From the NCBI GenBank assembly GCA_036834365.1, contig DAITOA010000001.1, positions 15,892 to 79,891 of the forward strand: 64,000 nucleotides of DNA, in the 5' to 3' direction. The notes under the pieces are model-generated. The model searched no databases, was not told where the DNA came from, and saw nothing but the letters and a program-made list of their open reading frames with translations. Both the position numbers and the translations under genes were made by a program. Source of the DNA: Thermodesulfobacteriota bacterium. GTDB lineage: Bacteria; Desulfobacterota; Desulfomonilia; UBA1062. Positions 1 through 16,757 of the stretch are shown here, piece after piece (position 1 is the first letter of the stretch; each line of letters begins with the position of its first letter).

Positions 1-2151
1 GAAGCCGCCCGATCCGTCATCGGCCGGCATGGGTGTGTCGGCGCTCACCTCTTCCCAGAACTCCAGGAGGATGACCGTGAAATCGTCATCCAGTGCATCC
101 CTGCAGTTGAATGAACGCACATCGGTTTCAATGGCATCGATGATCTCGTTTCCCCGCAGAGACTGGACGGCCTTCCTGAAACACTTGATGAGACGCTCCT
201 TGCCGTACTGATTCCCGTCGGCATCTTCTGTTTCAATGAGGCAGTCGGTATACATGAGCAGGGCATCTCCCATCCCGATGCCTGTCTCGGCCTTTTCCTC
301 ATACCCGCCGTCCTCGAAGGAACCAAGGAAGAAACCGTCGGTATCGAGCTCCTTGATTTCGCCGGTCGCCCGCTTAAAGAGGAGGGGGGTGGGGTGGCCG
401 GCATTCGTGTAGGTAATGTTCTTGCCGAACCGGTCCGTCAGGACGAAGAAGGCGGTGATGTAATCCTCGTCGAGGACCGGCTTCAGGTCGCGGTTGAGCA
501 TATGCATGAGGATGGTGGGGCTTGCCACTGTGGCTGCAAGTGCATGAAAGCTCATCTTGAACATCGACGAGATGAGGGCCGCGGCCACGCCGTGTCCCGA
601 TACGTCCGCAATGATGAATCCGGTCTGACCTCCGCCCAGGTCGACTACGTCGTAGAGGTCCCCACCGATATGAATGGAAGGAATGTACTTGCAGGTGAAG
701 CTCACACCGTTGAGGTTTTCGAAGGTATCCGGCAGCAGACTCTTCTGGAGCCGGGCGGCCATTTCCAGCTCGCTGACCATGCGATGGTTCTGCGCCCTGA
801 TGATCTCGTTCTTCTCATCCATTTCTGCCAGGGTTATGGTCAGCCTGGCCGCCTGTTCCTCCATAAGATCCCTGGTCTCGGCGCTCTCCATGAGGAGACG
901 CTCCATATCCTCTTTCCGCCGTATCTCCTCTGTCACATCAGTGAAGAGTACAACGGAATATCTGCCTCCCTCCTTCGGTTCCACCGTGTGCAGGGTCTTC
1001 TCTATGGTATGTACGTTGAGATCTTCGGTCTGCAGGGAAACCTGCCGGCTCTTGTTCGAGAGGAGGTCCCTGACGACTCCGGGGGCCTCTGAGACGGATT
1101 TGCCCATGAGGTCTTTTGACCTCAGGGAGGTTATCTCCTCGGCCTTCCTGTTCCACATGATGATGCGCTCAAGATCCGAGACCAGGAGGAGGCCGGACGG
1201 AAACGTCTTGGTGAGCTGGACGATGAAATCGTCGCGTATCATGGGGGCAGGATACGCCACCCTGCCGGGGGCTGTATCCCTGCGGTAAATGAGTCGCACC
1301 TTGTTGCCGCATCCCTCGTAGATAACCTGGTTGAAGAAGTTCTTGGCGATCTGGATGCCGAGACCGCTTCCGATGTGTGCATGGGGATCGGGATTGAATT
1401 CTTTTCGGTAGTCAAAGCCGTTGCCCTGGTCGGTGACGATATATTCCAGTGTGTCCCTCTCCATATAAACCTGGAGTGTCACGACACGGTTCATATAATC
1501 TGGATTTTTCGCTCTCTGCTTCAGAAGTTCCTCGAAGGATCCCTTTTTCACTGCCCTGGCCTTTTCTTCCAGGGAGATGTTCAGGTTTCCGTGCTCCACG
1601 GCATTGAGGAGGATCTCGCCAAGCGCCATCTTGAGCATCTCCACATCGGGACACACGGCCCTGGCGTTCAAGACCGCCTGGTTGATGAAAAAGGGGAGCT
1701 TGTCTATATCGTTACCGAACCGGAGGGCCTTCTGCTCACTGAGGACGCAGTCGGTATCAGGCATGATGCCGATACACAGGGAACGCTGGTGGTCTTGAAT
1801 CCGTATGATACATTCCAAGAGCTTATCGACGGAGACGGGTCTTATGAGGTAATCCAGGACGCCCATGCGTATGCATTCAAGGGCAAGGAAACCGTCAACC
1901 TTGCCGGCGGCTACGATGAGCAGGGCGCCGGGACAGCTGCCGTGAATCTGTCTGAGGGTCTTCAGCCCCGTGTCGTCCTTGGGATCAAGTGCGACGAGGA
2001 CGAGGTCGGGCTTTTCCTCCATCAGGTGGACAAGACCCTCACCGGGGGAGAAGACGTGCAGTGCACGATATCCTTTCCGGGAGATTCTCTTTGCAAGCTC
2101 TCCGGAGGACTTTTCAGGATCGATGATGAGGATGCTCTGAATGACCTTCAT
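1..2151 (-). CDS. Receiver / GHKL Ser-kinase (RsbW-like HATPase) / PP2C (SpoIIE/RsbU-like) phosphatase fusion protein. ATG at 2151. 3' end (C-terminus) runs off the window start.
   Basis: Hand translation of minus-strand frame from 2151: MKVIQSILIIDPEKSSGELAKRISRKGYRALHVFSPGEGLVHLMEEKPDLVLVALDPKDDTGLKTLRQIH (receiver-like). N-box ALGEILLNAVEHGNLNISLEEK at approx. 1567-1632. PP2C motif GGDLYDVVDLGGGQTGFIIADVSGHGVAAALISSMFK at 556-669. Not in the ORF track because it has no stop inside the window. No listed ORFs in this frame across 2 kb. Confidence 0.75.
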   Translation of the reverse strand, partial: MKVIQSILIIDPEKSSGELAKRISRKGYRALHVFSPGEGLVHLMEEKPDLVLVALDPKDDTGLKTLRQIHGSCPGALLIVAAGKVDGFLALECIRMGVLDYLIRPVSVDKLLECIIRIQDHQRSLCIGIMPDTDCVLSEQKALRFGNDIDKLPFFINQAVLNARAVCPDVEMLKMALGEILLNAVEHGNLNISLEEKARAVKKGSFEELLKQRAKNPDYMNRVVTLQVYMERDTLEYIVTDQGNGFDYRKEFNPDPHAHIGSGLGIQIAKNFFNQVIYEGCGNKVRLIYRRDTAPGRVAYPAPMIRDDFIVQLTKTFPSGLLLVSDLERIIMWNRKAEEITSLRSKDLMGKSVSEAPGVVRDLLSNKSRQVSLQTEDLNVHTIEKTLHTVEPKEGGRYSVVLFTDVTEEIRRKEDMERLLMESAETRDLMEEQAARLTITLAEMDEKNEIIRAQNHRMVSELEMAARLQKSLLPDTFENLNGVSFTCKYIPSIHIGGDLYDVVDLGGGQTGFIIADVSGHGVAAALISSMFKMSFHALAATVASPTILMHMLNRDLKPVLDEDYITAFFVLTDRFGKNITYTNAGHPTPLLFKRATGEIKELDTDGFFLGSFEDGGYEEKAETGIGMGDALLMYTDCLIETEDADGNQYGKERLIKCFRKAVQSLRGNEIIDAIETDVRSFNCRDALDDDFTVILLEFWEEVSADTPMPADDGSGGF

Positions 2152-2202: not shown

Positions 2203-3279
2203 TCAGCACTTCTCATTTCGAACCATGTTCATGATGGTGCCGGCGATGGAATGCAGTGATACGATCTTGGACACCCCGCCCATCTCTATGGCGACCTTGG
2301 GCATACCGAACACCACGCAGCTCTCTTCATCCTGTGCTATGGTGAAGGCGCCTGCATCCTTCATTTCCCGCAGGCCCCTCGCCCCGTCGTCACCCATACC
2401 GGTGAGGATGACCCCCAGGGCATTGGGTCCCAGTGTGTTGGCCGCCGACCTGAAAAGGACATCCACTGAGGGAATATGCCGGTTCACGGGAGGACCTTCC
2501 TTTACCCGCACGTAATATCCCTTGGGACCCTTCTGGACGATCATGTGCCTGCCGCCGGGGGCGATCAGTGCCTGACCCTGCTTCAATTCGTCATTGTCCC
2601 TCGCCTCGATGACATTCATGGCGGAAAGCCCGTTGACCCGTTTTGCAAAGGAGTTGGTGAACACAGGCGGCATGTGCTGTACGATCAGGGTCGGAGGGGC
2701 ATCGGCAGGCATCTTGTTGAGTATCTGTTCGAGGGCGACGGTTCCCCCTGTCGATGCGCCGATTATAAGGATCTTTGATCCATCCCGCACGGAGATCAAT
2801 CTTTCCGATTTGATTACGGCATCCATGCCCAGCTTCGGGGGAACGATGAGATTCGGGGGGGAGACGGCCTTTTTCAGTTTGGCCGAGGATGCCGCCCTGA
2901 CCTTGGAACAGAGATCGATCCGCAGGTCTTCTATTCCTTCACTGATCTTCACCTTCGGCTTGGCCAGGAAATCGATGGCGCCTAGCGACAGGGCCTTTAC
3001 CGTGGCATCTGCACCCTGTTCTGTGAGCGAGGAAAACATGACAACGGGCATGGGTGATGAGCGCATGAGCCGGGAGAGGAAGGTGAGGCCGTCCATCTTG
3101 GGCATCTCGATGTCCAGGGTCAGCACATCGGGTTTGAGTTCCTTGATCTTGCGTATGGCAATGAGTGGATCCGGTGCCGTTCCCACCACCTCGATCCCGG
3201 GGTCGGAGTCGAGGATATCCTTGAGGAGTTTCCTCACCAGGGCGGAGTCATCAATGATCAATACCTTTATTTTTTCCAT
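2203..3279 (-). CDS. cheB: Chemotaxis response regulator protein-glutamate methylesterase CheB (receiver + methylesterase)
   Basis: MEKIKVLIIDDSALVRKLL...TLDIEMPKMDGLTF receiver N-terminus plus CheB catalytic domain (GASTGG, HMPPVFT motifs). 358 aa. Confidence 0.9.
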   Translation of the reverse strand: MEKIKVLIIDDSALVRKLLKDILDSDPGIEVVGTAPDPLIAIRKIKELKPDVLTLDIEMPKMDGLTFLSRLMRSSPMPVVMFSSLTEQGADATVKALSLGAIDFLAKPKVKISEGIEDLRIDLCSKVRAASSAKLKKAVSPPNLIVPPKLGMDAVIKSERLISVRDGSKILIIGASTGGTVALEQILNKMPADAPPTLIVQHMPPVFTNSFAKRVNGLSAMNVIEARDNDELKQGQALIAPGGRHMIVQKGPKGYYVRVKEGPPVNRHIPSVDVLFRSAANTLGPNALGVILTGMGDDGARGLREMKDAGAFTIAQDEESCVVFGMPKVAIEMGGVSKIVSLHSIAGTIMNMVRNEKC

Positions 3280-3286
3280 ATCCGTC

Positions 3287-3883
3287 TCACTCGAAGATGG
3301 TCAGCTCGCCACCTTCCGCATGGAGTTTCTCCTTCTCCTGGAAGAGCTTGGTCTTGTATGCCTGTTCCGCCTCGATGATCCGGGAGTCGACCGTCGATTT
3401 GAGCCTCTTGAGCAGGACCTTTGCGGTATCGGGAAAGTACAGGATCTTCCTGCCCGCGTAACCGCCCACATCCTCCTTCACGATCTCGATCTGTTCCATC
3501 TTCAGGAATGCGCGAACGAAATCGATGTTGGACTCGGGAACATTGCCGTCGGTCTTGCGGAAGTTCAGGACATGTCCGCCTCCGAACACCTTCGCCTGGA
3601 AGTGTTTCTGGGAGCCTCCCTTTTTGATCATCTCATTGATCAGCTGTTCCATGGCGAACATACCGTACTTGGCGGACTCGGAAAGGAACATCTCTTCGGA
3701 ACGCACGTCGCCGGGGAGCATGAAGTGGTTCATGCCGCCAATGCCGGTCTTTGTATCCTTGATGCACACGGATATGCATGAACCCAGGACCGTGGCGATG
3801 ACATCCGAGGAACTCACATAGAACTCGCCAGGATAGATGATCACCATGGTCCGTTTGAATTTATCACTGTGTCTTCTATACAT
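3287..3883 (-). CDS. cheD: Chemoreceptor glutamine deamidase CheD
   Basis: VLGSCISVCIKD...GIGGMNHFMLPG matches the CheD signature. 198 aa (start may be an internal Met at 3847). Confidence 0.8.
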   Translation of the reverse strand: MYRRHSDKFKRTMVIIYPGEFYVSSSDVIATVLGSCISVCIKDTKTGIGGMNHFMLPGDVRSEEMFLSESAKYGMFAMEQLINEMIKKGGSQKHFQAKVFGGGHVLNFRKTDGNVPESNIDFVRAFLKMEQIEIVKEDVGGYAGRKILYFPDTAKVLLKRLKSTVDSRIIEAEQAYKTKLFQEKEKLHAEGGELTIFE

Positions 3884-3884
3884 G

Positions 3885-4730
3885 TTACACCTTCTGATAC
3901 ACCGTGTGTTTCAGGAACTTGAAGAGGTGTTTCATGGACATGAGGGATTCCGAATGGCCGATGAACATGAGCCCCATGTCCTTGAGGTGAAGGTGGAACT
4001 TCTGTACCAGGTCCGACTTCGTCTCTTCGTTGAAGTAGATCATGACGTTTCTGCAGAAGATAACGTCGAAGGATCTCTTCATGGGAAAGAGACGGTCCAT
4101 GAGGTTGAGCTTGCGGAAGGTGATCATGTTTTTGATCTCCTTGCTCGCTTCATACCCTTCGACGGTGCGGACCAGGTACTTCGTGATGTAGTTCACTGGC
4201 ACCGGGGCGATCTGCTGACTGGAATAGACCCCCCGGGCCGCCTTGGAAAGGATTTCGGTATCAAGGTCCGTCGCCAGGATCTTGATGTCCCAGCCTCTTT
4301 CCTCCCGGAGGGCGTCGGACACGGTCATGGCAATGCTATAGGGTTCTTCCCCCGACGAGCATCCTGCTGACCATATCCTCAGACGTCTCTCGCGGCCTTT
4401 TCTGGCCACCTCAATGAGGGTGGGAAGTACCTCGTCATGAAGGAACTCAAAATGATGCTTCTCGCGGAAGAAGTCGGTCTTGTTCGTGGTGACGCGGTTG
4501 ATGAGATTGATGATCTCGTTACCGGCATCGGAACTTTCTTTCAGGTACTGATAGTACTCGGAAAAGTTTTTTAAATTCAAAAATCTGAGTCTTTTAGACA
4601 ATCGTGCGACAACCAGATTTCTCTTCCTGTCGGACATGTGGATGCCCGTCTCCCGGTAGATGATTTCCCGAAAGAGTTGGAACTCCTTGTCGGAGATACT
4701 GTATGATTGCGCGCACAGCGTTGAATTCAT
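3885..4730 (-). CDS. cheR: Chemotaxis protein methyltransferase CheR
   Basis: N-terminal CheR all-alpha domain plus SAM-MTase region (FFREKHHFEFL..., IWSAGCSSGEEPYSIAM). 281 aa. Stop abuts cheD start. Confidence 0.9.
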   Translation of the reverse strand: MNSTLCAQSYSISDKEFQLFREIIYRETGIHMSDRKRNLVVARLSKRLRFLNLKNFSEYYQYLKESSDAGNEIINLINRVTTNKTDFFREKHHFEFLHDEVLPTLIEVARKGRERRLRIWSAGCSSGEEPYSIAMTVSDALREERGWDIKILATDLDTEILSKAARGVYSSQQIAPVPVNYITKYLVRTVEGYEASKEIKNMITFRKLNLMDRLFPMKRSFDVIFCRNVMIYFNEETKSDLVQKFHLHLKDMGLMFIGHSESLMSMKHLFKFLKHTVYQKV

Positions 4731-5218
4731 ACGCCATCGACCATATTAAGCTCCTCATCCGAGAGCAGTCTGTCAACATCGAGGAGGATCACGAACTTGT
4801 TGTCCTTGATGCCCATGCCGAAGATGAATTCGGTGCTTACCCCGGTAGAGAAATGCGGACGAGGCTTGATGTCCTCCTTGTTCAGCGTGATGACATCGCT
4901 TACGGCATCAACCACGAGCCCCATGATCCTCCCCGATACATCCAGGATCATGATGACCGTGAACTGGTCGTATTCCTTGATCTCCATGCCGAAGCGCTCG
5001 CGCAAGTCGATGACCGGGACGACGATTCCCCTGAGGTTGAGCACGCCCTTGATGAACCTCGGCACATTGGGGATCGAGGTGCAGCTCTGATATGCGATGA
5101 TCTCGTTGAGCTTGAGGATGGAGATCCCATAGGTCTCCATCCCCAGTTGGAAGGTCACATACTGGTTTGATAGCGCCTTTGCCGTTTCGTTCTGCTGAGC
5201 CATGGGTGTACTCCCCAT
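4727..5218 (-). CDS. cheW: Chemotaxis coupling protein CheW
   Basis: 163 aa, CheW-like domain (YVTFQLGMETYGISILKLNEII...). ATGA overlap with cheR. TAATG overlap with upstream MCP. Confidence 0.9.
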   Translation of the reverse strand: MGSTPMAQQNETAKALSNQYVTFQLGMETYGISILKLNEIIAYQSCTSIPNVPRFIKGVLNLRGIVVPVIDLRERFGMEIKEYDQFTVIMILDVSGRIMGLVVDAVSDVITLNKEDIKPRPHFSTGVSTEFIFGMGIKDNKFVILLDVDRLLSDEELNMVDGV

Positions 5219-6861
5219 TAGAATTCCTCGAAATCGTCTTCGAATTCGGATACTGTTTCGGTTTTTGCCGGTTCCATGCGTGTTTTGTGCTGGGGCTGTT
5301 TTTTCGTTGGGGATTTCTTTGTCCTGGTTGATTCGGTCTCGCGGGTGACCTTGAAGCGGTCCACGGTATCGGCCAGGTCTTTGGCCTCGTTGCTGAGGCT
5401 GTCCGATGTGCTGGCGAGTTCCTCCACCGTGGAAGCGTTCTGCTGGGTGGTGGTGTCGATCTGGGCGATGGCCCGGTTCAGCTCGTCCACGCCTGAAGCC
5501 TGCTCGCTGGATGCCGCGGCGATCTCCTCCATGACCTGGGAGAGGTCCTGGATGTGCCTGATGATCTGTTCCAGGGACTCCCCGGATTTCTTCACCATGA
5601 TGTCGCCAGCGGCGATCTTGTTCACCGTGTCCTCGATGAGGGCCTTGATCTGGCGGGCGGCCTCCGCCGACCTTTGGGCCAGTGCCCGTACTTCTTCGGC
5701 GACCACGGCGAATCCTTTACCGTGCTCGCCAGCCCGGGCGGCCTCGACGGCGGCGTTGAGGGCCAGGAGGTTGGTCTGGAAGGCCACCTCGTTGACCGTG
5801 ACGATGATGTCGCCGATCTTCTTGGATGCGGCGGAGATCTCGCTCATGCCGAGGACGAGCTCCTGGGCGGCTTCTCCGCTGGAGCCGGCCATGCGCACCA
5901 TCTCCGTGGCCTTCTGGCGGCCGTCGGTGGCGTTCTCGGCGTTGTGTTTGATGGAGGAGGTCATCTCTTCGATGGTGGCCGCCACCTCTTCGATGGCCGA
6001 TGCCTGCTCCTGGGTGGCCTGTGAGAGGCCCTGGGCTCCGGCGGCCACCTCCTTGGTGGCGGAATCCACCTGGAGCGAGGAATCCTTCACCCTGGTGATG
6101 ACCTCTTCGAGGTTCTCCACGAAGGTGTTGAACCAGGATGCGATCTCTCCCACCTCATCGGTGGAGTTCACCGGCAGCCGCTTGGACAGGTCGGCCTCGC
6201 CCTGCGCTATGTCCATCATGCTGGATGATATCTCCCGAGCCCTCCTGGCTATCTTGCCGGCGAAGAGTGCGCCGAGCACGGCCACGACGATGGCGGTGAT
6301 GAGGAGGAAAATCAGGAGCTCCATCTGGAGGCTGCGGACCGCTGCGAGGGCCTCGGATGAGGGGACGGCGGCCCAGACGATCCAGTCCAGGGGTTTGATG
6401 TATGCAAGGTAGCTTATCTTGCTGACCCCGCCGAAGGTGTAGTCCGATCTTCCCTGCTTCTTGTCGACGGCCGCCCTTACCCAGTCGTAGGTCTCGTAAA
6501 GGGTCTTGTTGTTGCGGAGTTCCGCCTTCGGGTGGTAGACACAGGTGCCGTCGGGCTGGAAGATGGCAAGGTACCCGGTGTCGAAATACTTTTCCTTGGC
6601 GGCCTCCTTGATGAGGTCGGCCTTGAGGGACTTCATGAGCTGTTCTTTGATGATGTCCAGGTTACCCTCGATGGAAGCGCTTCTCACCTCGGCCATCCTG
6701 GCGTAGGAATCCACCTTCACCTTGAGATACTCGAATGCCTGGTTCTTCAGATGTCCGCTGATGCTTATGCCTACATAGATGATAACGACAACAAGCGGTA
6801 TCAAGCCTGCGGAAAGGATCAGGGCCGTGAGCTTCTCGCGAAGTTTCCATCGTATGCTCAT
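5218..6861 (-). CDS. Methyl-accepting chemotaxis protein (copy 1 of 2, identical)
   Basis: 547 aa: N-terminal TM helix, periplasmic sensor region, second TM helix, HAMP, and an MA signalling domain with a highly conserved hairpin (ALNAAVEAARAGEHGKGFAVVAEEVRALA). RBS aggag upstream. Confidence 0.9.
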   Translation of the reverse strand: MSIRWKLREKLTALILSAGLIPLVVVIIYVGISISGHLKNQAFEYLKVKVDSYARMAEVRSASIEGNLDIIKEQLMKSLKADLIKEAAKEKYFDTGYLAIFQPDGTCVYHPKAELRNNKTLYETYDWVRAAVDKKQGRSDYTFGGVSKISYLAYIKPLDWIVWAAVPSSEALAAVRSLQMELLIFLLITAIVVAVLGALFAGKIARRAREISSSMMDIAQGEADLSKRLPVNSTDEVGEIASWFNTFVENLEEVITRVKDSSLQVDSATKEVAAGAQGLSQATQEQASAIEEVAATIEEMTSSIKHNAENATDGRQKATEMVRMAGSSGEAAQELVLGMSEISAASKKIGDIIVTVNEVAFQTNLLALNAAVEAARAGEHGKGFAVVAEEVRALAQRSAEAARQIKALIEDTVNKIAAGDIMVKKSGESLEQIIRHIQDLSQVMEEIAAASSEQASGVDELNRAIAQIDTTTQQNASTVEELASTSDSLSNEAKDLADTVDRFKVTRETESTRTKKSPTKKQPQHKTRMEPAKTETVSEFEDDFEEF

Positions 6862-8553
6862 ACTGTGATCTCCTCTGTGTATAGACTCATTCTAGAATTC
6901 CTCGAAATCGTCTTCGAATTCGGATACTGTTTCGGTTTTTGCCGGTTCCATGCGTGTTTTGTGCTGGGGCTGTTTTTTCGTTGGGGATTTCTTTGTCCTG
7001 GTTGATTCGGTCTCGCGGGTGACCTTGAAGCGGTCCACGGTATCGGCCAGGTCTTTGGCCTCGTTGCTGAGGCTGTCCGATGTGCTGGCGAGTTCCTCCA
7101 CCGTGGAAGCGTTCTGCTGGGTGGTGGTGTCGATCTGGGCGATGGCCCGGTTCAGCTCGTCCACGCCTGAAGCCTGCTCGCTGGATGCCGCGGCGATCTC
7201 CTCCATGACCTGGGAGAGGTCCTGGATGTGCCTGATGATCTGTTCCAGGGACTCCCCGGATTTCTTCACCATGATGTCGCCAGCGGCGATCTTGTTCACC
7301 GTGTCCTCGATGAGGGCCTTGATCTGGCGGGCGGCCTCCGCCGACCTTTGGGCCAGTGCCCGTACTTCTTCGGCGACCACGGCGAATCCTTTACCGTGCT
7401 CGCCAGCCCGGGCGGCCTCGACGGCGGCGTTGAGGGCCAGGAGGTTGGTCTGGAAGGCCACCTCGTTGACCGTGACGATGATGTCGCCGATCTTCTTGGA
7501 TGCGGCGGAGATCTCGCTCATGCCGAGGACGAGCTCCTGGGCGGCTTCTCCGCTGGAGCCGGCCATGCGCACCATCTCCGTGGCCTTCTGGCGGCCGTCG
7601 GTGGCGTTCTCGGCGTTGTGTTTGATGGAGGAGGTCATCTCTTCGATGGTGGCCGCCACCTCTTCGATGGCCGATGCCTGCTCCTGGGTGGCCTGTGAGA
7701 GGCCCTGGGCTCCGGCGGCCACCTCCTTGGTGGCGGAATCCACCTGGAGCGAGGAATCCTTCACCCTGGTGATGACCTCTTCGAGGTTCTCCACGAAGGT
7801 GTTGAACCAGGATGCGATCTCTCCCACCTCATCGGTGGAGTTCACCGGCAGCCGCTTGGACAGGTCGGCCTCGCCCTGCGCTATGTCCATCATGCTGGAT
7901 GATATCTCCCGAGCCCTCCTGGCTATCTTGCCGGCGAAGAGTGCGCCGAGCACGGCCACGACGATGGCGGTGATGAGGAGGAAAATCAGGAGCTCCATCT
8001 GGAGGCTGCGGACCGCTGCGAGGGCCTCGGATGAGGGGACGGCGGCCCAGACGATCCAGTCCAGGGGTTTGATGTATGCAAGGTAGCTTATCTTGCTGAC
8101 CCCGCCGAAGGTGTAGTCCGATCTTCCCTGCTTCTTGTCGACGGCCGCCCTTACCCAGTCGTAGGTCTCGTAAAGGGTCTTGTTGTTGCGGAGTTCCGCC
8201 TTCGGGTGGTAGACACAGGTGCCGTCGGGCTGGAAGATGGCAAGGTACCCGGTGTCGAAATACTTTTCCTTGGCGGCCTCCTTGATGAGGTCGGCCTTGA
8301 GGGACTTCATGAGCTGTTCTTTGATGATGTCCAGGTTACCCTCGATGGAAGCGCTTCTCACCTCGGCCATCCTGGCGTAGGAATCCACCTTCACCTTGAG
8401 ATACTCGAATGCCTGGTTCTTCAGATGTCCGCTGATGCTTATGCCTACATAGATGATAACGACAACAAGCGGTATCAAGCCTGCGGAAAGGATCAGGGCC
8501 GTGAGCTTCTCGCGAAGTTTCCATCGTATGCTCATACTGTGATCTCCTCTGTG
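5219..8553. repeat. Perfect tandem direct duplication, 2 x 1661 bp (5219..6879 and 6893..8553) separated by a unique 13-nt junction (6880..6892). Each unit carries RBS plus entire MCP CDS.
   Basis: ORF pairs 5218..6861/6892..8535, 5276..6412/6950..8086, 5554..6024/7228..7698, 6662..6850/8336..8524 have identical translations at a constant +1674 offset. Flanks diverge at TAA vs TAG stop and after the shared 18-nt actgtgatctcctctgtg. Confidence 0.9.
6892..8535 (-). CDS. Methyl-accepting chemotaxis protein (copy 2 of 2, identical)
   Basis: Translation is 100% identical to copy 1 (547 aa). All internal antisense ORFs are also identical at an offset of 1674 nt. Confidence 0.9.
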   Translation of the reverse strand: MSIRWKLREKLTALILSAGLIPLVVVIIYVGISISGHLKNQAFEYLKVKVDSYARMAEVRSASIEGNLDIIKEQLMKSLKADLIKEAAKEKYFDTGYLAIFQPDGTCVYHPKAELRNNKTLYETYDWVRAAVDKKQGRSDYTFGGVSKISYLAYIKPLDWIVWAAVPSSEALAAVRSLQMELLIFLLITAIVVAVLGALFAGKIARRAREISSSMMDIAQGEADLSKRLPVNSTDEVGEIASWFNTFVENLEEVITRVKDSSLQVDSATKEVAAGAQGLSQATQEQASAIEEVAATIEEMTSSIKHNAENATDGRQKATEMVRMAGSSGEAAQELVLGMSEISAASKKIGDIIVTVNEVAFQTNLLALNAAVEAARAGEHGKGFAVVAEEVRALAQRSAEAARQIKALIEDTVNKIAAGDIMVKKSGESLEQIIRHIQDLSQVMEEIAAASSEQASGVDELNRAIAQIDTTTQQNASTVEELASTSDSLSNEAKDLADTVDRFKVTRETESTRTKKSPTKKQPQHKTRMEPAKTETVSEFEDDFEEF

Positions 8554-10811: not shown

Positions 10812-11192
10812 TTACCTCATGAATTTTTTTGTGACATAGACCAGCTGTTCAGGTTTGAAAGGCTTTACGAGCCATCCTGATGCCCCCGCCTGCTTGCCTT
10901 TGAGCTTCATCTCTTCCTGGGATTCGGTGGTAAGCACCAGGATAGGGAGGTACCTGAACGGTGTTTTCTTCACCTCTTTGATGAAGGTGATGCCATCCAT
11001 GACCGGCATATTGATATCGCTGATGATCATGCCGATCACATCACCGTGTTTGTGGGCATCGGTGAGTTTCTCCAGCCCGTCCGCACCGTTGACCGCATTG
11101 ATCGTTTCAAACCCGGCGGCTTTCAGCGTATAGTTGACGGATGCCCTCAGAGTGGCAGAATCATCCACCACGAGGATCTTTTTCTTGATCAT
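10812..11192 (-). CDS. cheY: CheY-like single-domain response regulator
   Basis: 126 aa, MIKKKILVVDDSATLR...ISDINMPVMDGI...LTTESQ...KPF. Confidence 0.85.
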   Translation of the reverse strand: MIKKKILVVDDSATLRASVNYTLKAAGFETINAVNGADGLEKLTDAHKHGDVIGMIISDINMPVMDGITFIKEVKKTPFRYLPILVLTTESQEEMKLKGKQAGASGWLVKPFKPEQLVYVTKKFMR

Positions 11193-11494
11193 GGGAGGGC
11201 CTCCTTCAAGGCAATGCTGAACCCCGAGATCTCGATGATTTCCCGAATGGCAGGATTGATTGCCCTGATGCGCATGGCACCGTCCGCATCGAATGTTTTC
11301 TTGAGGGAGTACAGAAGCTGGAGTCCTGAAATGTCTATCTCCTCAACCCCATCAAGATCCAGGGTGATGACCTGCGATGAATCTTCCAGGAGCGACTCCA
11401 GAGAAGAATGAATGTTCTCGATGTCCGAAACCACGAGATTGCCCTTGCAAACGATTGCACCCTGCCTGTCTATGATGATTTCCATTGTCATCAC
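11189..11494 (-). CDS. STAS-domain protein (anti-sigma-factor antagonist-like)
   Basis: 101 aa with conserved phospho-Ser context ...VEEIDISGLQLL.... ATGA overlap with cheY. Confidence 0.75.
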   Translation of the reverse strand: MMTMEIIIDRQGAIVCKGNLVVSDIENIHSSLESLLEDSSQVITLDLDGVEEIDISGLQLLYSLKKTFDADGAMRIRAINPAIREIIEISGFSIALKEALP

Positions 11495-11799
11495 CTCATG
11501 GATATGGGGAATAGCTTGTCCAGCTTCACTGCTTTGAAGATGTTGAAGAGATTTTCGTGGATACCCTTGATCTCGAAGCTCGCCTTTGCACTGTCAAGGC
11601 TTTTGAAGAACATGAGGATCTTGCCTATGCCTGAAGAACCCATGGTCGGGACCATGGCGAGATCCATTATGACCTTCTTCGGTTTCTGGCCAGCGATCTT
11701 GTTGAGCTCGGTACGCAGGAGTTCCGCGGCTGGAGTGTCCACAGCTCCTGTGACCTTCACATAGAGGGTGTCTCCCGATGACCTGGTTGTAACATCCAT
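11491..11799 (-). CDS. STAS-domain protein (anti-sigma-factor antagonist-like), second paralogue
   Basis: About 102 aa from internal ATG at 11799, which has an aaggag RBS 8 nt upstream (ORF track extends to 11883). Motif ...PTMGSSGIGKIL... Overlaps the downstream STAS gene by 4 nt. Confidence 0.7.
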   Translation of the reverse strand: MDVTTRSSGDTLYVKVTGAVDTPAAELLRTELNKIAGQKPKKVIMDLAMVPTMGSSGIGKILMFFKSLDSAKASFEIKGIHENLFNIFKAVKLDKLFPISMR

Positions 11800-12190: not shown

Positions 12191-13060
12191 ATGAAGAACG
12201 CATTCATACTTGTCATCACCGGTCTGTCAGGGTCCGGAAAGTCGACGGCTCTCAAGGCCATTGAGGATGAGGGCTTCTTCTGCATGGACAACATGCCCAT
12301 CGACCTCATGGACAAGTTTCTCGAGCTCTATGAGTCGGCGTCCTTCACTATCCACAAGGTATGTATATGTATGGATGCCAGGGCAGGTGCACCATATTTT
12401 GCCCAGAAGGCCCCCTTGCTCATAGCCCAGCTTCGGAATCTGACGGAGAATGTACGGCTCATCTTCCTGGAGTCAGGCAAGGAAAACCTCCTGAATCGGT
12501 ACAAGGAAACGAGGAGGAGGCATCCGTTGAGCGAGTCGTACCCGAACCTGCTCGATGCCATCGAGGCAGAGGTAGACCTGCTGGCGCCGCTTCGAGGGAT
12601 TGCCGATTTCATCGTGAACACCTCACAGCTCAATGTTCACCAGCTTGCAGCAAGGATCAAGGAGATCATCTCGACGGAAGATCGGTCCAGAGATATGTAC
12701 ATTGAGGTCAGTTCGTTCGGTTTTAAAAAGGGGATCCCCATGGACTCCGACATCGTCATGGACGTCAGGTTCCTCCCGAATCCGTATTTCGTCGACGAAC
12801 TCAAGGATAAAACCGGGTCAGACAGGGAGGTAAAAGACTTCCTGCGGTCGTCAGAAGTCTATGAACAATTCCTCTCGAAATTCAAGGACCTCATCAGTTT
12901 TATCCTTCCGCTCTGCAAGAAGGAAGGCAGGTCCTATCTCAATATCTCCATAGGTTGTACCGGCGGAAGGCACAGGTCTGTAGCCATTGCGGAAGAGATC
13001 AGGCAGGCAATAGAGGATGCCGGGTATCCAAGCAGGCTGAAGCATCGTGACATCGTATGA
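12191..13060 (+). CDS. rapZ: RNase adaptor / nucleotide-binding protein RapZ (YhbJ)
   Basis: 289 aa, P-loop VITGLSGSGKSTALKALED at N-terminus, RapZ-typical length and C-terminal domain. Confidence 0.85.
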   Translation: MKNAFILVITGLSGSGKSTALKAIEDEGFFCMDNMPIDLMDKFLELYESASFTIHKVCICMDARAGAPYFAQKAPLLIAQLRNLTENVRLIFLESGKENLLNRYKETRRRHPLSESYPNLLDAIEAEVDLLAPLRGIADFIVNTSQLNVHQLAARIKEIISTEDRSRDMYIEVSSFGFKKGIPMDSDIVMDVRFLPNPYFVDELKDKTGSDREVKDFLRSSEVYEQFLSKFKDLISFILPLCKKEGRSYLNISIGCTGGRHRSVAIAEEIRQAIEDAGYPSRLKHRDIV

Positions 13061-13074
13061 GGAGGTTTTAATCT

Positions 13075-13488
13075 ATGGTCGGTATCATTGTTGTCGCGCA
13101 CGGTGATCTTGCACGTGCATTCGAGGAAACAGCCCAGATGATCGTGGGGCCGACAGAGGCCTTCAAAGCCTGTTCCTTTGTGCAGGGTACGGACGTAGAT
13201 GACCTGAGAAGGCTGCTGAAGGCATCCATCAAAGAAGTGAACAGGGGTGAAGGTGTCATCATTCTTACTGACATGTTCGGCGGCACCCCGTCCAATATCA
13301 GCCTGTCATTTTTGGAGAATGGGAAGATCGAGGTGATCACCGGGGTTAATCTCCCCATGGTGATTACAGCGCTTACCAAGAGAAAAGGGAAGGAAATATC
13401 TGAACTGGCTCGCTTGTTGAAAGAAGGGGGCTCGAAGAATATCCATATCGCTTCAGAGATCCTCGCAACGAATGTGGCTGAAAAATGA
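13075..13488 (+). CDS. PTS mannose/fructose/sorbose-family EIIA component
   Basis: 137 aa, MVGIIVVAHGDLA... (EIIA-Man fold with active His in VAHG). Confidence 0.8.
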   Translation: MVGIIVVAHGDLARAFEETAQMIVGPTEAFKACSFVQGTDVDDLRRLLKASIKEVNRGEGVIILTDMFGGTPSNISLSFLENGKIEVITGVNLPMVITALTKRKGKEISELARLLKEGGSKNIHIASEILATNVAEK

Positions 13489-13973
13489 ATGTATTGCTCG
13501 TCAGAGTGGATGACAGATTCATTCACGGGCAGATCCTTGAATCATGGATACCTCACCTGAAGGCCCAGGGCGTCATCGTTGCCAATGATGGTCTTGCTGG
13601 CGATCAGTTTCAGAAGACCATCATGTCCATGGCGATCCCCGACAGGATAAAGCTCAGGATCGTATCTCTGGATGAGGCCCTCAGACTGAGGGATGACTGT
13701 GATTTCAATGAAAAACGAATCTTTGTCATCGTGTCCAGCATAAAGGATGCCCACCGTCTGTTTGTGGGGGGTTTTCCATTCACCCGGCTCAACATCGGGA
13801 ACAACAAGTCCACGACTGAATCAAGGCAGATTTCCTATTCTGTTTGGGTCGACCGCGAAGATCTCCGGCTTGTCAGGGAACTCCTGGACAAAGGGCTTGA
13901 GGTGACGCTTCAATCCGTTCCCCGTGAGCGTCTTATTGACATGAGATCTATTCTTGATATGGTAGATCTATGA
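13485..13973 (+). CDS. PTS mannose-family EIIB component
   Basis: 162 aa, LVRVDDRFIHGQIL motif (phospho-His). ATGA overlap with the EIIA gene. Confidence 0.8.
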   Translation: MNVLLVRVDDRFIHGQILESWIPHLKAQGVIVANDGLAGDQFQKTIMSMAIPDRIKLRIVSLDEALRLRDDCDFNEKRIFVIVSSIKDAHRLFVGGFPFTRLNIGNNKSTTESRQISYSVWVDREDLRLVRELLDKGLEVTLQSVPRERLIDMRSILDMVDL

Positions 13974-14644
13974 TCTTGACCGGATTTCTCGGGGTGCTCG
14001 CCGGCGCCCTTCTGTGGATGGACAGGGTCTTCGTGTTTCAATTCATGATCAGCAGGCCCATGATCATGGGTCCCTTGATCGGCCTTGTCATGCATGATCT
14101 GCATGCCGGGCTCTTGGTGGGCCTTTCCCTGGAGCTTCTGTGGCTGAATGCACCACCCGTTGGTGCATATCTCCCCAATGACGAAAGCTTCTGCACCGCC
14201 GTAGGAGTCCCGGCGGCTGTTCTTGCCGGGTCTTGGGCTTCACCGTCTCAGGCGGCGGGATTGGCCATCCTCCTTTGTCTGCCGGCAGCCCTCGTGGGGA
14301 GGACTCTCGACATGCGGCTGCGGACAATGAACGAGGAGCTCTTGGATGTAAACGAACGCATGTCCGAGAAAAAGATATCACAAGCCATGGTCAAGGCGGT
14401 CCTCCGGTCTTTCATTCTTGCCCTTGTGACGCTCTGTGCATGTGTCATGATTGCCGATGTCATGGTCATTCACGTCGGGAAGATTTTCCCTGATGCGGTT
14501 CTCGCCTCGCTCCCTGTCGTTCCTTTCGCTTGCGTGCTGATCGGTCTGGCGGCCCTCGTATCCCGGGAAATGCCCAGGAGGTCGCATGTAGGCATGTTCG
14601 CCCTGGGTCTCAGCCTGGTGCTCCTGCTCACATGGATCGTATAA
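13970..14644 (+). CDS. PTS mannose/sorbose-family EIIC-like membrane component (short)
   Basis: 224 aa polytopic membrane protein resembling ManY/LevF-type IIC. No IID gene follows. Confidence 0.65.
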   Translation: MILTGFLGVLAGALLWMDRVFVFQFMISRPMIMGPLIGLVMHDLHAGLLVGLSLELLWLNAPPVGAYLPNDESFCTAVGVPAAVLAGSWASPSQAAGLAILLCLPAALVGRTLDMRLRTMNEELLDVNERMSEKKISQAMVKAVLRSFILALVTLCACVMIADVMVIHVGKIFPDAVLASLPVVPFACVLIGLAALVSREMPRRSHVGMFALGLSLVLLLTWIV

Positions 14645-15845: not shown

Positions 15846-16757
15846 ATGGATACTTCTGCAAGGATTACACCCGACCTCATATTGAAAAACCCTGTCATGA
15901 GCGCATCGGGAACCTTTGCATACGGCGAAGAGTTTGCCGAGTTCTTTGATCTGGCTCTCCTCGGGGCTGTGGTGACCAAGGGATTGTCGCTGGCTCCCAA
16001 GACCGGGAATCCTACGCCGCGCATTGTGGAGACTGCGTGCGGAATGATCAATTCCATAGGCCTTGAAAACATAGGGATACCAGGATTCATCAAGGACAAG
16101 CTCCCCTTCCTGATGCAATTCGATACCTGCGTAATAACCAACTTTTTCGGAAGCACCGAAGATGACTATGTTCGAGCGGCAGAGGCCCTGAATGTGCATG
16201 GTGTCTCGGCTCTGGAGATGAATGTGTCCTGCCCGAATGTGAAACAGGGCGGTATCGAATTCGGACGGGACCCGGATGCACTTCACACCCTCGTGAAGAG
16301 GGTAAGACAGGTATGCGGGAAACCTCTCATCGTGAAGCTCTCCCCCATGGTTACGGATATAAGGATGAACGCATTGGCGGCAGAGGAGGCAGGGGCCGAC
16401 GCACTCACCTGCATCAATACTGTGCCGGCAATGGCCATAGATGAAAAGGTCCGAAGGCCTATGCTCGGAAACATTACCGGTGGACTCTCAGGCCCTGCCA
16501 TCAAGCCCATCGCCCTCAAGATCGTATGGGATGTCTCCAGGGAGGTCTCCATACCCGTCATTGCGTCAGGAGGTGTTCTGACAGCACAGGATGCCATTCA
16601 GTTCATGCTGGCAGGAGCCACTGCCGTACAGGTCGGCAGCGGCGGCTTGAGGGATCCGCTATGCTATCCTGAGATTATCAAAGGTATCAGCACTTATCTT
16701 GATGAGAACCAGATACAGGACATATCAGATCTCATAGGAGGTCTCCTGACGGATTGA
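15846..16757 (+). CDS. pyrD: Dihydroorotate dehydrogenase catalytic subunit (class 1B)
   Basis: 303 aa, ...SASGTFAYGEEF..., NTVPAMAIDE... Start 3 nt after the pyrK stop. Confidence 0.9.
   Translation: MDTSARITPDLILKNPVMSASGTFAYGEEFAEFFDLALLGAVVTKGLSLAPKTGNPTPRIVETACGMINSIGLENIGIPGFIKDKLPFLMQFDTCVITNFFGSTEDDYVRAAEALNVHGVSALEMNVSCPNVKQGGIEFGRDPDALHTLVKRVRQVCGKPLIVKLSPMVTDIRMNALAAEEAGADALTCINTVPAMAIDEKVRRPMLGNITGGLSGPAIKPIALKIVWDVSREVSIPVIASGGVLTAQDAIQFMLAGATAVQVGSGGLRDPLCYPEIIKGISTYLDENQIQDISDLIGGLLTD

Follow-up and report, generated by a model that had tools for sequence, protein, structure and literature searches.

A predicted bifunctional serine kinase/phosphatase of the partner-switching type at the end of an F7-like che operon in an uncultured Desulfomonilia bacterium

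In Bacillus subtilis, the energy-stress phosphatase RsbP is made of a PAS domain, a coiled coil and a PP2C domain, and dephosphorylates the STAS protein RsbV-P. In HsbR of Pseudomonas aeruginosa and CrsR of Shewanella oneidensis, a receiver (REC), a PP2C phosphatase and a kinase domain follow each other in this order (PMC6482189), and CrsR is encoded together with the STAS protein CrsA in the Shewanella che1 locus (PMC9855816). SypE of Vibrio fischeri is a bifunctional protein of the order kinase-REC-PP2C, which controls the phosphorylation of SypA (PMC10120452). LvrC of Leptospira combines a receiver with an RsbW-like Bergerat domain; it was crystallised with ADP-Mg and has been proposed to act as a receiver-controlled anti-sigma factor (PMC13269768). 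Here we analysed the gene that closes a che operon in a stretch of 64,000 nucleotides (positions 15,892 to 79,891 of contig DAITOA010000001.1, assembly GCA_036834365.1; the whole stretch is called the window below) from an uncultured relative of sulfate reducers. An earlier note on this stretch, made without database searches, had drawn attention to the unusual domain order of the gene product. We consider it likely that this terminal gene of an F7-like operon encodes a bifunctional partner-switching enzyme, which arose by the fusion of an LvrC-type and an RsbP-like neighbour gene.

Architecture of the kinase/phosphatase and its STAS partners

The gene runs on the minus strand from position 2151 to position 1 as a single frame of 717 codons, free of stops up to the window edge. 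The database protein P0001 is 720 amino acids (aa) long, is 100% identical across all 717 residues of the window open reading frame (ORF) and ends ...GGFVEF. The C-terminal end is indeed cut by the window edge, as had been remarked, but the loss is trivial: just the last 3 of 720 residues (VEF) are missing, no domain is lost and the domain set is complete. A STAS or other domain beyond the edge, as in Rv1364c, was considered and rejected, the protein ending so shortly past it.

Pfam-A profiles were run on the 717-residue translation, with cut-offs of 30.2 bits for Response_reg and 22.6 bits for PAS. The full-length AlphaFold model has a predicted template modelling score (pTM) of 0.35 and a weak PP2C region, and we took domain folds and disorder from it, but not the placement of the domains relative to each other. 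The parts of the protein are given below, with model confidence as predicted local distance difference test (pLDDT) values.

1792..2139, minus strand: degenerate (pseudo-)receiver, residues about 5-120 (Response_reg at 7-115, 32.8 bits; (beta-alpha)5 fold, pLDDT 80-90)
1282..1737, minus strand: RsbW/SpoIIAB-type Ser kinase of the Bergerat fold, residues about 139-290 (HATPase_c_2, PF13581, at 169-288, E 1.2e-10)
1222..1281, minus strand: variable inter-module linker, the fusion junction, residues 291-310 (pLDDT <50 for 293-310)
934..1221, minus strand: PAS domain, residues about 311-406 (Pfam PAS at 313-355 and PAS_9 at 319-407, below cut-off)
739..933, minus strand: two long helices forming a coiled-coil-like regulatory linker, residues about 407-471 (AlphaFold helices 407-438 and 448-471)
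58..726, minus strand: PP2C (SpoIIE-family) Ser phosphatase, residues about 476-698 (Pfam SpoIIE at 507-698, E 1.3e-40)
1..57, minus strand: variable acidic linker and conserved tail (...GGFVEF), residues 699-720 (the last 3 aa outside the window)

The order receiver, GHKL kinase, PP2C that had first been proposed agrees with the Pfam-A matches (7-115, 169-288 and 507-698). This list of three domains had, however, overlooked what lies between kinase and phosphatase: a PAS domain and some 65 residues in long helices. The PAS region shows PAS-like strands in the AlphaFold model (pLDDT about 85) and gave Foldseek matches to the FixL PAS; moreover, PF00989 (PAS) is precomputed on several orthologues. 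The sequence of the helical linker is strongly conserved (LLME.AE.KDLMEEQAA). In the alignment of homologues, linker 291-310 holds insertions of 25-35 aa in P0019-23. The Foldseek matches of the phosphatase part were the PP2C domains of RssB, Rv1364c, RsbX, SiaA and SpoIIE.

Conservation was counted in an alignment of 28 full-length homologues sharing 49-100% identity. The kinase N-box (E179, N183, H187, G188 and N189), the G1 box (D241-x-G243-x-G245) and the G2 box (G261-S-G-L-G265) are invariant in this set, and so are the PP2C metal ligands D498, D516, D636, D689 and D690. Both groups of motifs lie where the earlier note had located them, the N-box (E179..N183..H187-G188-N189) within residues 173-195 and the metal-binding motifs (GGD498 and AD516VSGHG) within residues 495-535. 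Its view that a kinase and a phosphatase reside in one polypeptide is consistent with the two intact motif sets, the activities being predicted from sequence.

The operon opens with two genes for STAS proteins:

11491..11799, minus strand: STAS1, anti-sigma-antagonist type (Pfam STAS, E 9.7e-14)
11189..11494, minus strand: STAS2 (Pfam STAS, E 7.3e-12)

Ser55 of STAS1 lies opposite the phospho-Ser of TM1442 and RsbV, within a G-S-S-G-I-G motif that is conserved in five of five clusters. In STAS2, Ile55 (D-I-S-G) stands opposite Ser58 of SpoIIAA, and the orthologues carry I, L, I, T and T there. Both STAS proteins had been considered as possible substrates of the enzyme; of the two, STAS1 has the phosphorylatable Ser (Ser55) and STAS2 has Ile55 instead. 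STAS1 alone of the two is the clear predicted substrate of the kinase and phosphatase, and STAS2 may be a non-phosphorylatable partner paired with it.

By likeness to HsbR and CrsR acting on HsbA and CrsA, and to SypE acting on SypA, the kinase domain would phosphorylate STAS1 on Ser55 and the PP2C domain would remove this phosphate, so that the protein would set the phosphorylation state of STAS1. The pseudo-receiver would modulate or dimerise the kinase. The balance between kinase and phosphatase would probably be set by the PAS/coiled-coil switch and not by phosphorylation of an N-terminal Asp; it may also depend on the x-F-x-E-F tail, through which the enzyme would be coupled physically to the array or to the adaptation enzymes of the che system. 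As output, one may think of a sigma factor sequestered by the kinase domain, or of a protein that pairs with STAS1 or STAS2 in the unphosphorylated state.

One may instead regard the GHKL domain as an anti-sigma or ATP-binding regulator devoid of STAS kinase activity. In that case the protein would essentially be an RsbP-like phosphatase joined to a module that sequesters a sigma factor, and phosphorylation of the STAS proteins, if it took place, would have another source. The proposal that LvrC is an anti-sigma factor (PMC13269768) and the lack of a phospho-Ser in STAS2 are in line with this explanation. However, the ATP-binding motifs of the N-box, G1 and G2 are invariant, the phospho-site Ser of STAS1 is kept in all clusters examined, the cluster also encodes a PP2C whose metal ligands are invariant, which implies that a phospho-substrate exists, and the clusters of the fused type contain no other HATPase_c_2 gene. 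We judge a non-kinase GHKL domain to be quite improbable, and retain a kinase/phosphatase acting on STAS1.

HsbR and CrsR resemble the window protein in that a receiver fold, a PP2C and an RsbW-type domain are united in one chain. They act on an adjacent STAS protein (HsbA or CrsA), just as STAS1, with its phospho-Ser, is encoded in the same operon here. The difference from the HsbR-type order, which had already been pointed out, was confirmed: REC-PP2C-kinase there (PMC6482189) against REC-kinase-PAS-PP2C in the window protein. The latter differs further by the insertion of a PAS domain and long helices, an Ala at the acceptor position of the receiver, two STAS genes on the 5′ side, a receptor-like pentapeptide at the C-terminus and no known link to RpoS. 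As far as can be read from its residues, the window protein is without two features that define HsbR and CrsR, the phosphorylatable receiver and the domain order; at the level of STAS phosphorylation it would most plausibly work like them. SypE likewise has a Ser kinase N-terminal to a PP2C in one chain, but its centre is occupied by a functional receiver, whereas the window protein has a PAS domain in the centre and a degenerate receiver at the N-terminus; SypE also lies outside che operons.

For the N-terminal half, PDB entry 9qih aligned end to end with residues 7-287 (phmmer E 6.8e-14; Foldseek E 1.2e-15). This entry was identified as Leptospira LvrC from its Foldseek description, and a literature search under its molecule name, "SenB", returned nothing. 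LvrC shares the receiver and the RsbW-like module, and the split sister genomes described below encode a 298-aa protein of the same architecture. Nevertheless, LvrC is a stand-alone protein with a canonical receiver, phosphorylated by LvrB at D53, whereas the module in the window is fused to PAS-PP2C and has Ala54 at the acceptor position. The C-terminal 420 aa have the layout of RsbP, the likeness being one of layout and not of RsbP sequence, and a stand-alone 420-aa PAS-PP2C version exists in sister genomes. Unlike RsbP, this half is fused to a kinase and carries a C-terminal tail. In the cluster, neither an RsbQ-like partner nor an alpha/beta-hydrolase gene was encountered. Four features set the window protein apart from HsbR/CrsR and from SypE: the order of its domains, the PAS insertion, a dead receiver and a tail like that of the receptors.

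Fused and split forms of the gene

Four arrangements were found in sister genomes at the same position of the same che cluster. The first is the fused 720-aa gene. In the second (L009), a 298-aa REC-HATPase_c_2 gene is followed, after a gap of 13 nucleotides (nt), by a 421-aa PAS-PP2C gene. The third (L010) consists of a 180-aa HATPase_c_2 gene and then a 552-aa REC-PAS-PP2C gene, and the fourth (L011) of a 598-aa HATPase_c_2-PAS-PP2C gene from which the receiver is absent. A census of GTDB species representatives gave 16 fused, about 12 split PAS-PP2C, 3-4 REC-PAS-PP2C and one kinase-PAS-PP2C forms. The split point, that is the stop/start gap of L009, corresponds to linker 291-310, the only linker in the fused protein with poor conservation and low model confidence. 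A rough neighbour-joining tree, built from the C-terminal 410 residues that the forms share, shows fused proteins interleaved with split ones, which indicates at least two fusion or fission events. The domain order can thus be understood as that of two genes, the kinase gene ahead of the phosphatase gene, fixed when they fused.

The occurrence of two separate genes at this very position in sister genomes could also mean that two real genes were joined into the long ORF by an assembly error or a frameshift. However, the frame is uninterrupted, with no stop in the 717 codons. Identical 720-aa proteins are encoded on 8 independent contigs from different samples, a length of about 720 aa is kept in 34 clusters (defined at 90% identity, and 49-100% identical to the kinase/phosphatase), 16 species-level genomes carry the fused form, and the junction is a translated linker of varying length. 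The artefact was rejected on these grounds, and we attach practically no weight to it. The carriers are all uncultured Desulfomonilia, 'Syntrophaceae UBA' or Thermodesulfobacteriota metagenome-assembled genomes (MAGs).

The REC-kinase half (residues 1-300) was searched against 1.84 billion representatives, with E<=1e-10 counted as a strong match. This gave 1,848 clusters, nearly all of 295-310 aa and matched over residues 7-290 or so. The REC-RsbW module is thus common, and the earlier statement that RsbW-type proteins lack a receiver was too strong, the solved LvrC being itself an example. The combination REC-kinase-PP2C was also encountered in P0107 and P0117, which lie beside a STAS gene where che genes are absent, and in P0207, whereas REC-kinase-REC-PP2C occurs in P0190, P0197 and P0213; identities to the window protein are 23-28% for both groups. 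The order is therefore uncommon, yet not unique, and it recurs in unrelated lineages. To call the architecture uncommon, as was done at first, is right as regards its frequency, but the order is explained by a fusion of two genes and has appeared elsewhere. In an unrelated lineage, P0193 (404 aa), in the same range of identity, has the order REC-HATPase_c_2-STAS, with a kinase and its substrate in one chain, a further permutation of the parts of a partner switch.

The degenerate receiver and the C-terminal tail

The receiver was aligned without gaps to RssB and LvrC, and with MAFFT to E. coli CheY, the CheY and CheB of the window, and P0107 as anchors. The residues equivalent to D12, D13, D57, T87 and K109 of CheY are D11, P12, A54, A82 and R104, and the gapless RssB, LvrC, CheY and CheB alignments all put Ala54 at the acceptor position. 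The CheY and CheB receivers of the same cluster are fully canonical in this alignment, so that the alignment is not to blame for the degeneracy. Across the 28 homologues, the phospho-acceptor position is Asp in 4 and the second acidic position (equivalent to D13) in only 1. The T87-equivalent is never Thr (0/28) and is Ser in 7; at the position of K109, 15 homologues have Lys, and the window protein has Arg. The sister form L011/P0074 has no receiver, and manual inspection of the sequence of L010/P0063 revealed a Glu at the acceptor position. It had been proposed that the enzyme is under receiver control, through acetyl-phosphate or CheA-P. With Ala54 at the acceptor site, three of the four other canonical residues lost and these positions unconserved in the family, such control appears unlikely, and a receiver devoid of phosphorylation chemistry would require another route of signal coupling.

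The best-conserved residues of the receiver (R95, G97, D100 and P105) are located on its alpha4-beta5 face. In LvrC, this face of the receiver touches the Bergerat domain of the partner protomer (PMC13269768), and we therefore read the N-terminal domain as a structural or regulatory pseudo-receiver. By analogy with the receiver in the LvrC dimer, it probably offers a dimerisation or regulatory surface to the kinase.

A conventional regulator of the HsbR/CrsR kind, whose receiver is phosphorylated by CheA-P or an Hpt, perhaps at D56, and toggles kinase against phosphatase, would be in keeping with several observations. The Response_reg profile scored just above the Pfam cut-off, the receiver fold is present, the gene lies within a cheA operon and HsbR is regulated in this manner (PMC6482189). 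D56, located two residues past the acceptor site, is Asp in 20 and Glu in 3 of the 28 homologues. The D11-equivalent is Asp in 24, and an acidic residue often follows P12; D11 and E13 might serve as an acidic pair, and an atypical phosphorylation of D56 is conceivable. However, Ala54 occupies the acceptor position in every gapless alignment, and the positions equivalent to D13, T87 and K109 vary as described above. Neither position 54 nor position 56 is invariant. The form without a receiver and the form with Glu at the acceptor also argue against it, as do the fully canonical CheY and CheB of the same cluster. We regard control by receiver phosphorylation as unlikely, and keep the reading of a pseudo-receiver.

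At the other end of the protein, G716, F717, E719 and F720 are invariant in the 28 homologues, and the preceding stretch of about 15 acidic residues is variable and has a pLDDT <50, and is thus predicted to be disordered. The ending x-F-x-(E/D)-F was found in all 81 of the 81 che-linked members of the PP2C family, whatever their architecture (as GFVEF, GFIEF or EFEEF), and in 33 of 33 intact genome loci. In the controls it was seen in none of 39 distant SpoIIE proteins and none of 149 REC-HATPase_c_2 proteins. In the 7 clusters inspected, a long linker followed by (D/G)FEEF closes every methyl-accepting chemotaxis protein (MCP), and none of the remaining proteins of those clusters has such an end. 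When all 231 window ORFs with a length of 100 aa or more are considered, F-x-[ED]-F terminates only the two MCP copies (both DDFEEF), whose C-termini are encoded at 6892-6910 and 5218-5236 on the minus strand.

The chemoreceptor pentapeptide that tethers CheR and CheB is aromatic at positions 2 and 5 and acidic otherwise (PMC7390727). In the Che2 pathway of P. aeruginosa, CheB2 binds the pentapeptide of McpB (PMC7698151), and so does CheR2, according to work cited within PMC7390727. GFVEF fits the pattern x-[FWYH]-x-x-[FWYH], forms the very end of the chain and is preceded by a flexible linker. Like the endings of Tar and Tsr (NWETF) and of McpB/Aer2 of P. aeruginosa Che2, it combines an x-aromatic-x-x-aromatic end with acidic residues and a variable flexible linker; it differs in that it is borne by a kinase/phosphatase and not by a receptor, and in that position 2 is Phe, where Trp is usual. 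A literature search for such a pentapeptide on a PP2C protein gave only irrelevant papers, and no report of one on a non-receptor protein was found.

The identity of the reader of this tail was also considered. At the Gly-rich loop of its beta-subdomain, the CheR of the operon carries a deletion of 4 residues with respect to Salmonella CheR, and the length of its loop is nearly that of B. subtilis CheR and P. aeruginosa CheR1. The latter two enzymes are pentapeptide-independent. In work ascribed to Perez & Stock 2007 and Garcia-Fontana 2014, the loop is said to be diagnostic of pentapeptide dependence. The existence of loop features typical of pentapeptide-dependent CheR is stated in PMC7390727. 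CheR as the obvious reader of the tail is weakened by this loop, shorter than that of the pentapeptide-dependent Salmonella enzyme. We propose tentatively, as a possibility rather than as the expected outcome, that the tail is a receptor-mimicking tether, which would dock the kinase/phosphatase on the adaptation enzyme that reads the (D/G)FEEF ends of the receptors (CheB or an atypical CheR), or compete with the receptor tails. Tethering to the chemosensory array would then couple the partner switch in place of Asp phosphorylation, the receiver having become redundant and decayed. The receptor-like tail is the most testable lead of this analysis.

The operon, its neighbourhood and its meaning

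The operon comprises 11 genes on the minus strand, in the order STAS1, STAS2, cheY, cheA, mcp, mcp, cheW, cheR, cheD, cheB and, last, the kinase/phosphatase gene. Four junctions overlap (three by 4 nt and one by 1 nt). The last gene starts 51 nt downstream of cheB; its position directly after cheB, with two STAS genes in the same operon, had been rightly described. It is followed by a convergent radical-SAM gene. The whole arrangement is kept in relatives down to about 50% identity. The che and receptor genes of the window are as follows:

10812..11192, minus strand: CheY, with canonical receiver residues
8715..10808, minus strand: CheA (Hpt, dimerisation, HATPase_c and CheW-like domains)
6892..8535, minus strand: MCP copy a (Cache-HAMP-36H signalling domain), ending ...DDFEEF
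5218..6861, minus strand: MCP copy b, identical to copy a
4727..5218, minus strand: CheW
3885..4730, minus strand: CheR
3287..3883, minus strand: CheD
2203..3279, minus strand: CheB (canonical receiver and methylesterase)

The two identical 547-aa Cache-HAMP MCPs result from a perfect tandem duplication of 1,661 nt (window positions 5219-6879 and 6893-8553, with a period of 1,674 nt). Other assemblies of the same organism have two copies (L002 and L004) or one (L001), and the duplication is either very recent, a copy-number polymorphism, or a collapse or expansion in assembly. In CheY, the C-terminal 30 residues (...GASGWLVKPFKPEQL[VI]YVTKKF[MV]R) are near-identical to those of L005, L007 and L009-L011, whereas the other proteins show about 50% identity, which points to an interaction surface under unusual constraint.

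Immediately upstream of the che operon and divergent from it, positions 12191-14644 on the plus strand carry rapZ and then genes for EIIA, EIIB and EIIC of a phosphotransferase system (PTS) of the mannose/sorbose family; these rapZ-PTS neighbours are conserved in L001, L005, L007 and L011. A few kb downstream of the operon, beyond the left edge of the window (L001 13535-18571, with equivalents in L005-L007 and L009), lie genes for a Cache-HAMP histidine kinase, a sigma-54-dependent response regulator, a single-domain receiver and a REC-HisKA-HATPase hybrid kinase. The region of the Cache-HAMP histidine kinase is conserved in most relatives, and these two-component genes are possible candidates for signalling partners.

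The MCP aligned with E. coli Tsr without gaps over 254-258 columns (E 7e-58), whereas the longer Thermotoga receptor 2ch7 did not align over an equal length; the gapless Tsr alignment identifies the MCP as a 36-heptad receptor. Receptors with 36 heptads are of the F7 type. The ancestral 'stage-1' F7 cluster of Ortega et al. contains genes for an antagonist, cheY, cheA, two cheW, a receptor, cheR, cheD and cheB, and, after cheB, a receptor, an antagonist and a serine phosphatase (PMC7184735). The window operon matches this gene order, with STAS...cheY, cheA...cheB and the kinase/phosphatase. It differs in that both STAS genes lie on the 5′ side, cheW is single and the mcpA-like receptor is absent. 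The system is therefore of a known kind, an F7-like chemosensory cluster that holds a partner-switching module.

Besides the conserved D56 of the receiver and the shortened loop of CheR, some points weigh against the reading of a bifunctional partner-switching enzyme. The PAS domain scored 22.1 bits, just under its Pfam cut-off, and the confidence of the AlphaFold model is low in the PP2C part. Each genome with the fused gene is an uncultured MAG. No sigma-factor gene or other obvious target was found in the surrounding 10 kb. Finally, the F7-like class of the cluster is taken from gene order and receptor length and not from CheA phylogeny.

The output of non-motility F7-type chemosensory pathways is poorly understood, and the only worked example is that of CrsR/CrsA and HsbR/HsbA. 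The kinase/phosphatase family would offer the same partner-switch logic built from other parts, an LvrC-like kinase and an RsbP-like phosphatase, which exist in both fused and split states. In nature, this polymorphism of fused and split genes illustrates cleanly how signalling proteins of several domains gain "unusual" domain orders. The receptor-like pentapeptide is a concrete and cheaply testable candidate for the coupling route. If the tether reading is true, the enzyme would provide the first demonstrated case of a chemoreceptor pentapeptide used by a protein other than a receptor, and a confirmed coupling would extend the role of this tether beyond receptors.

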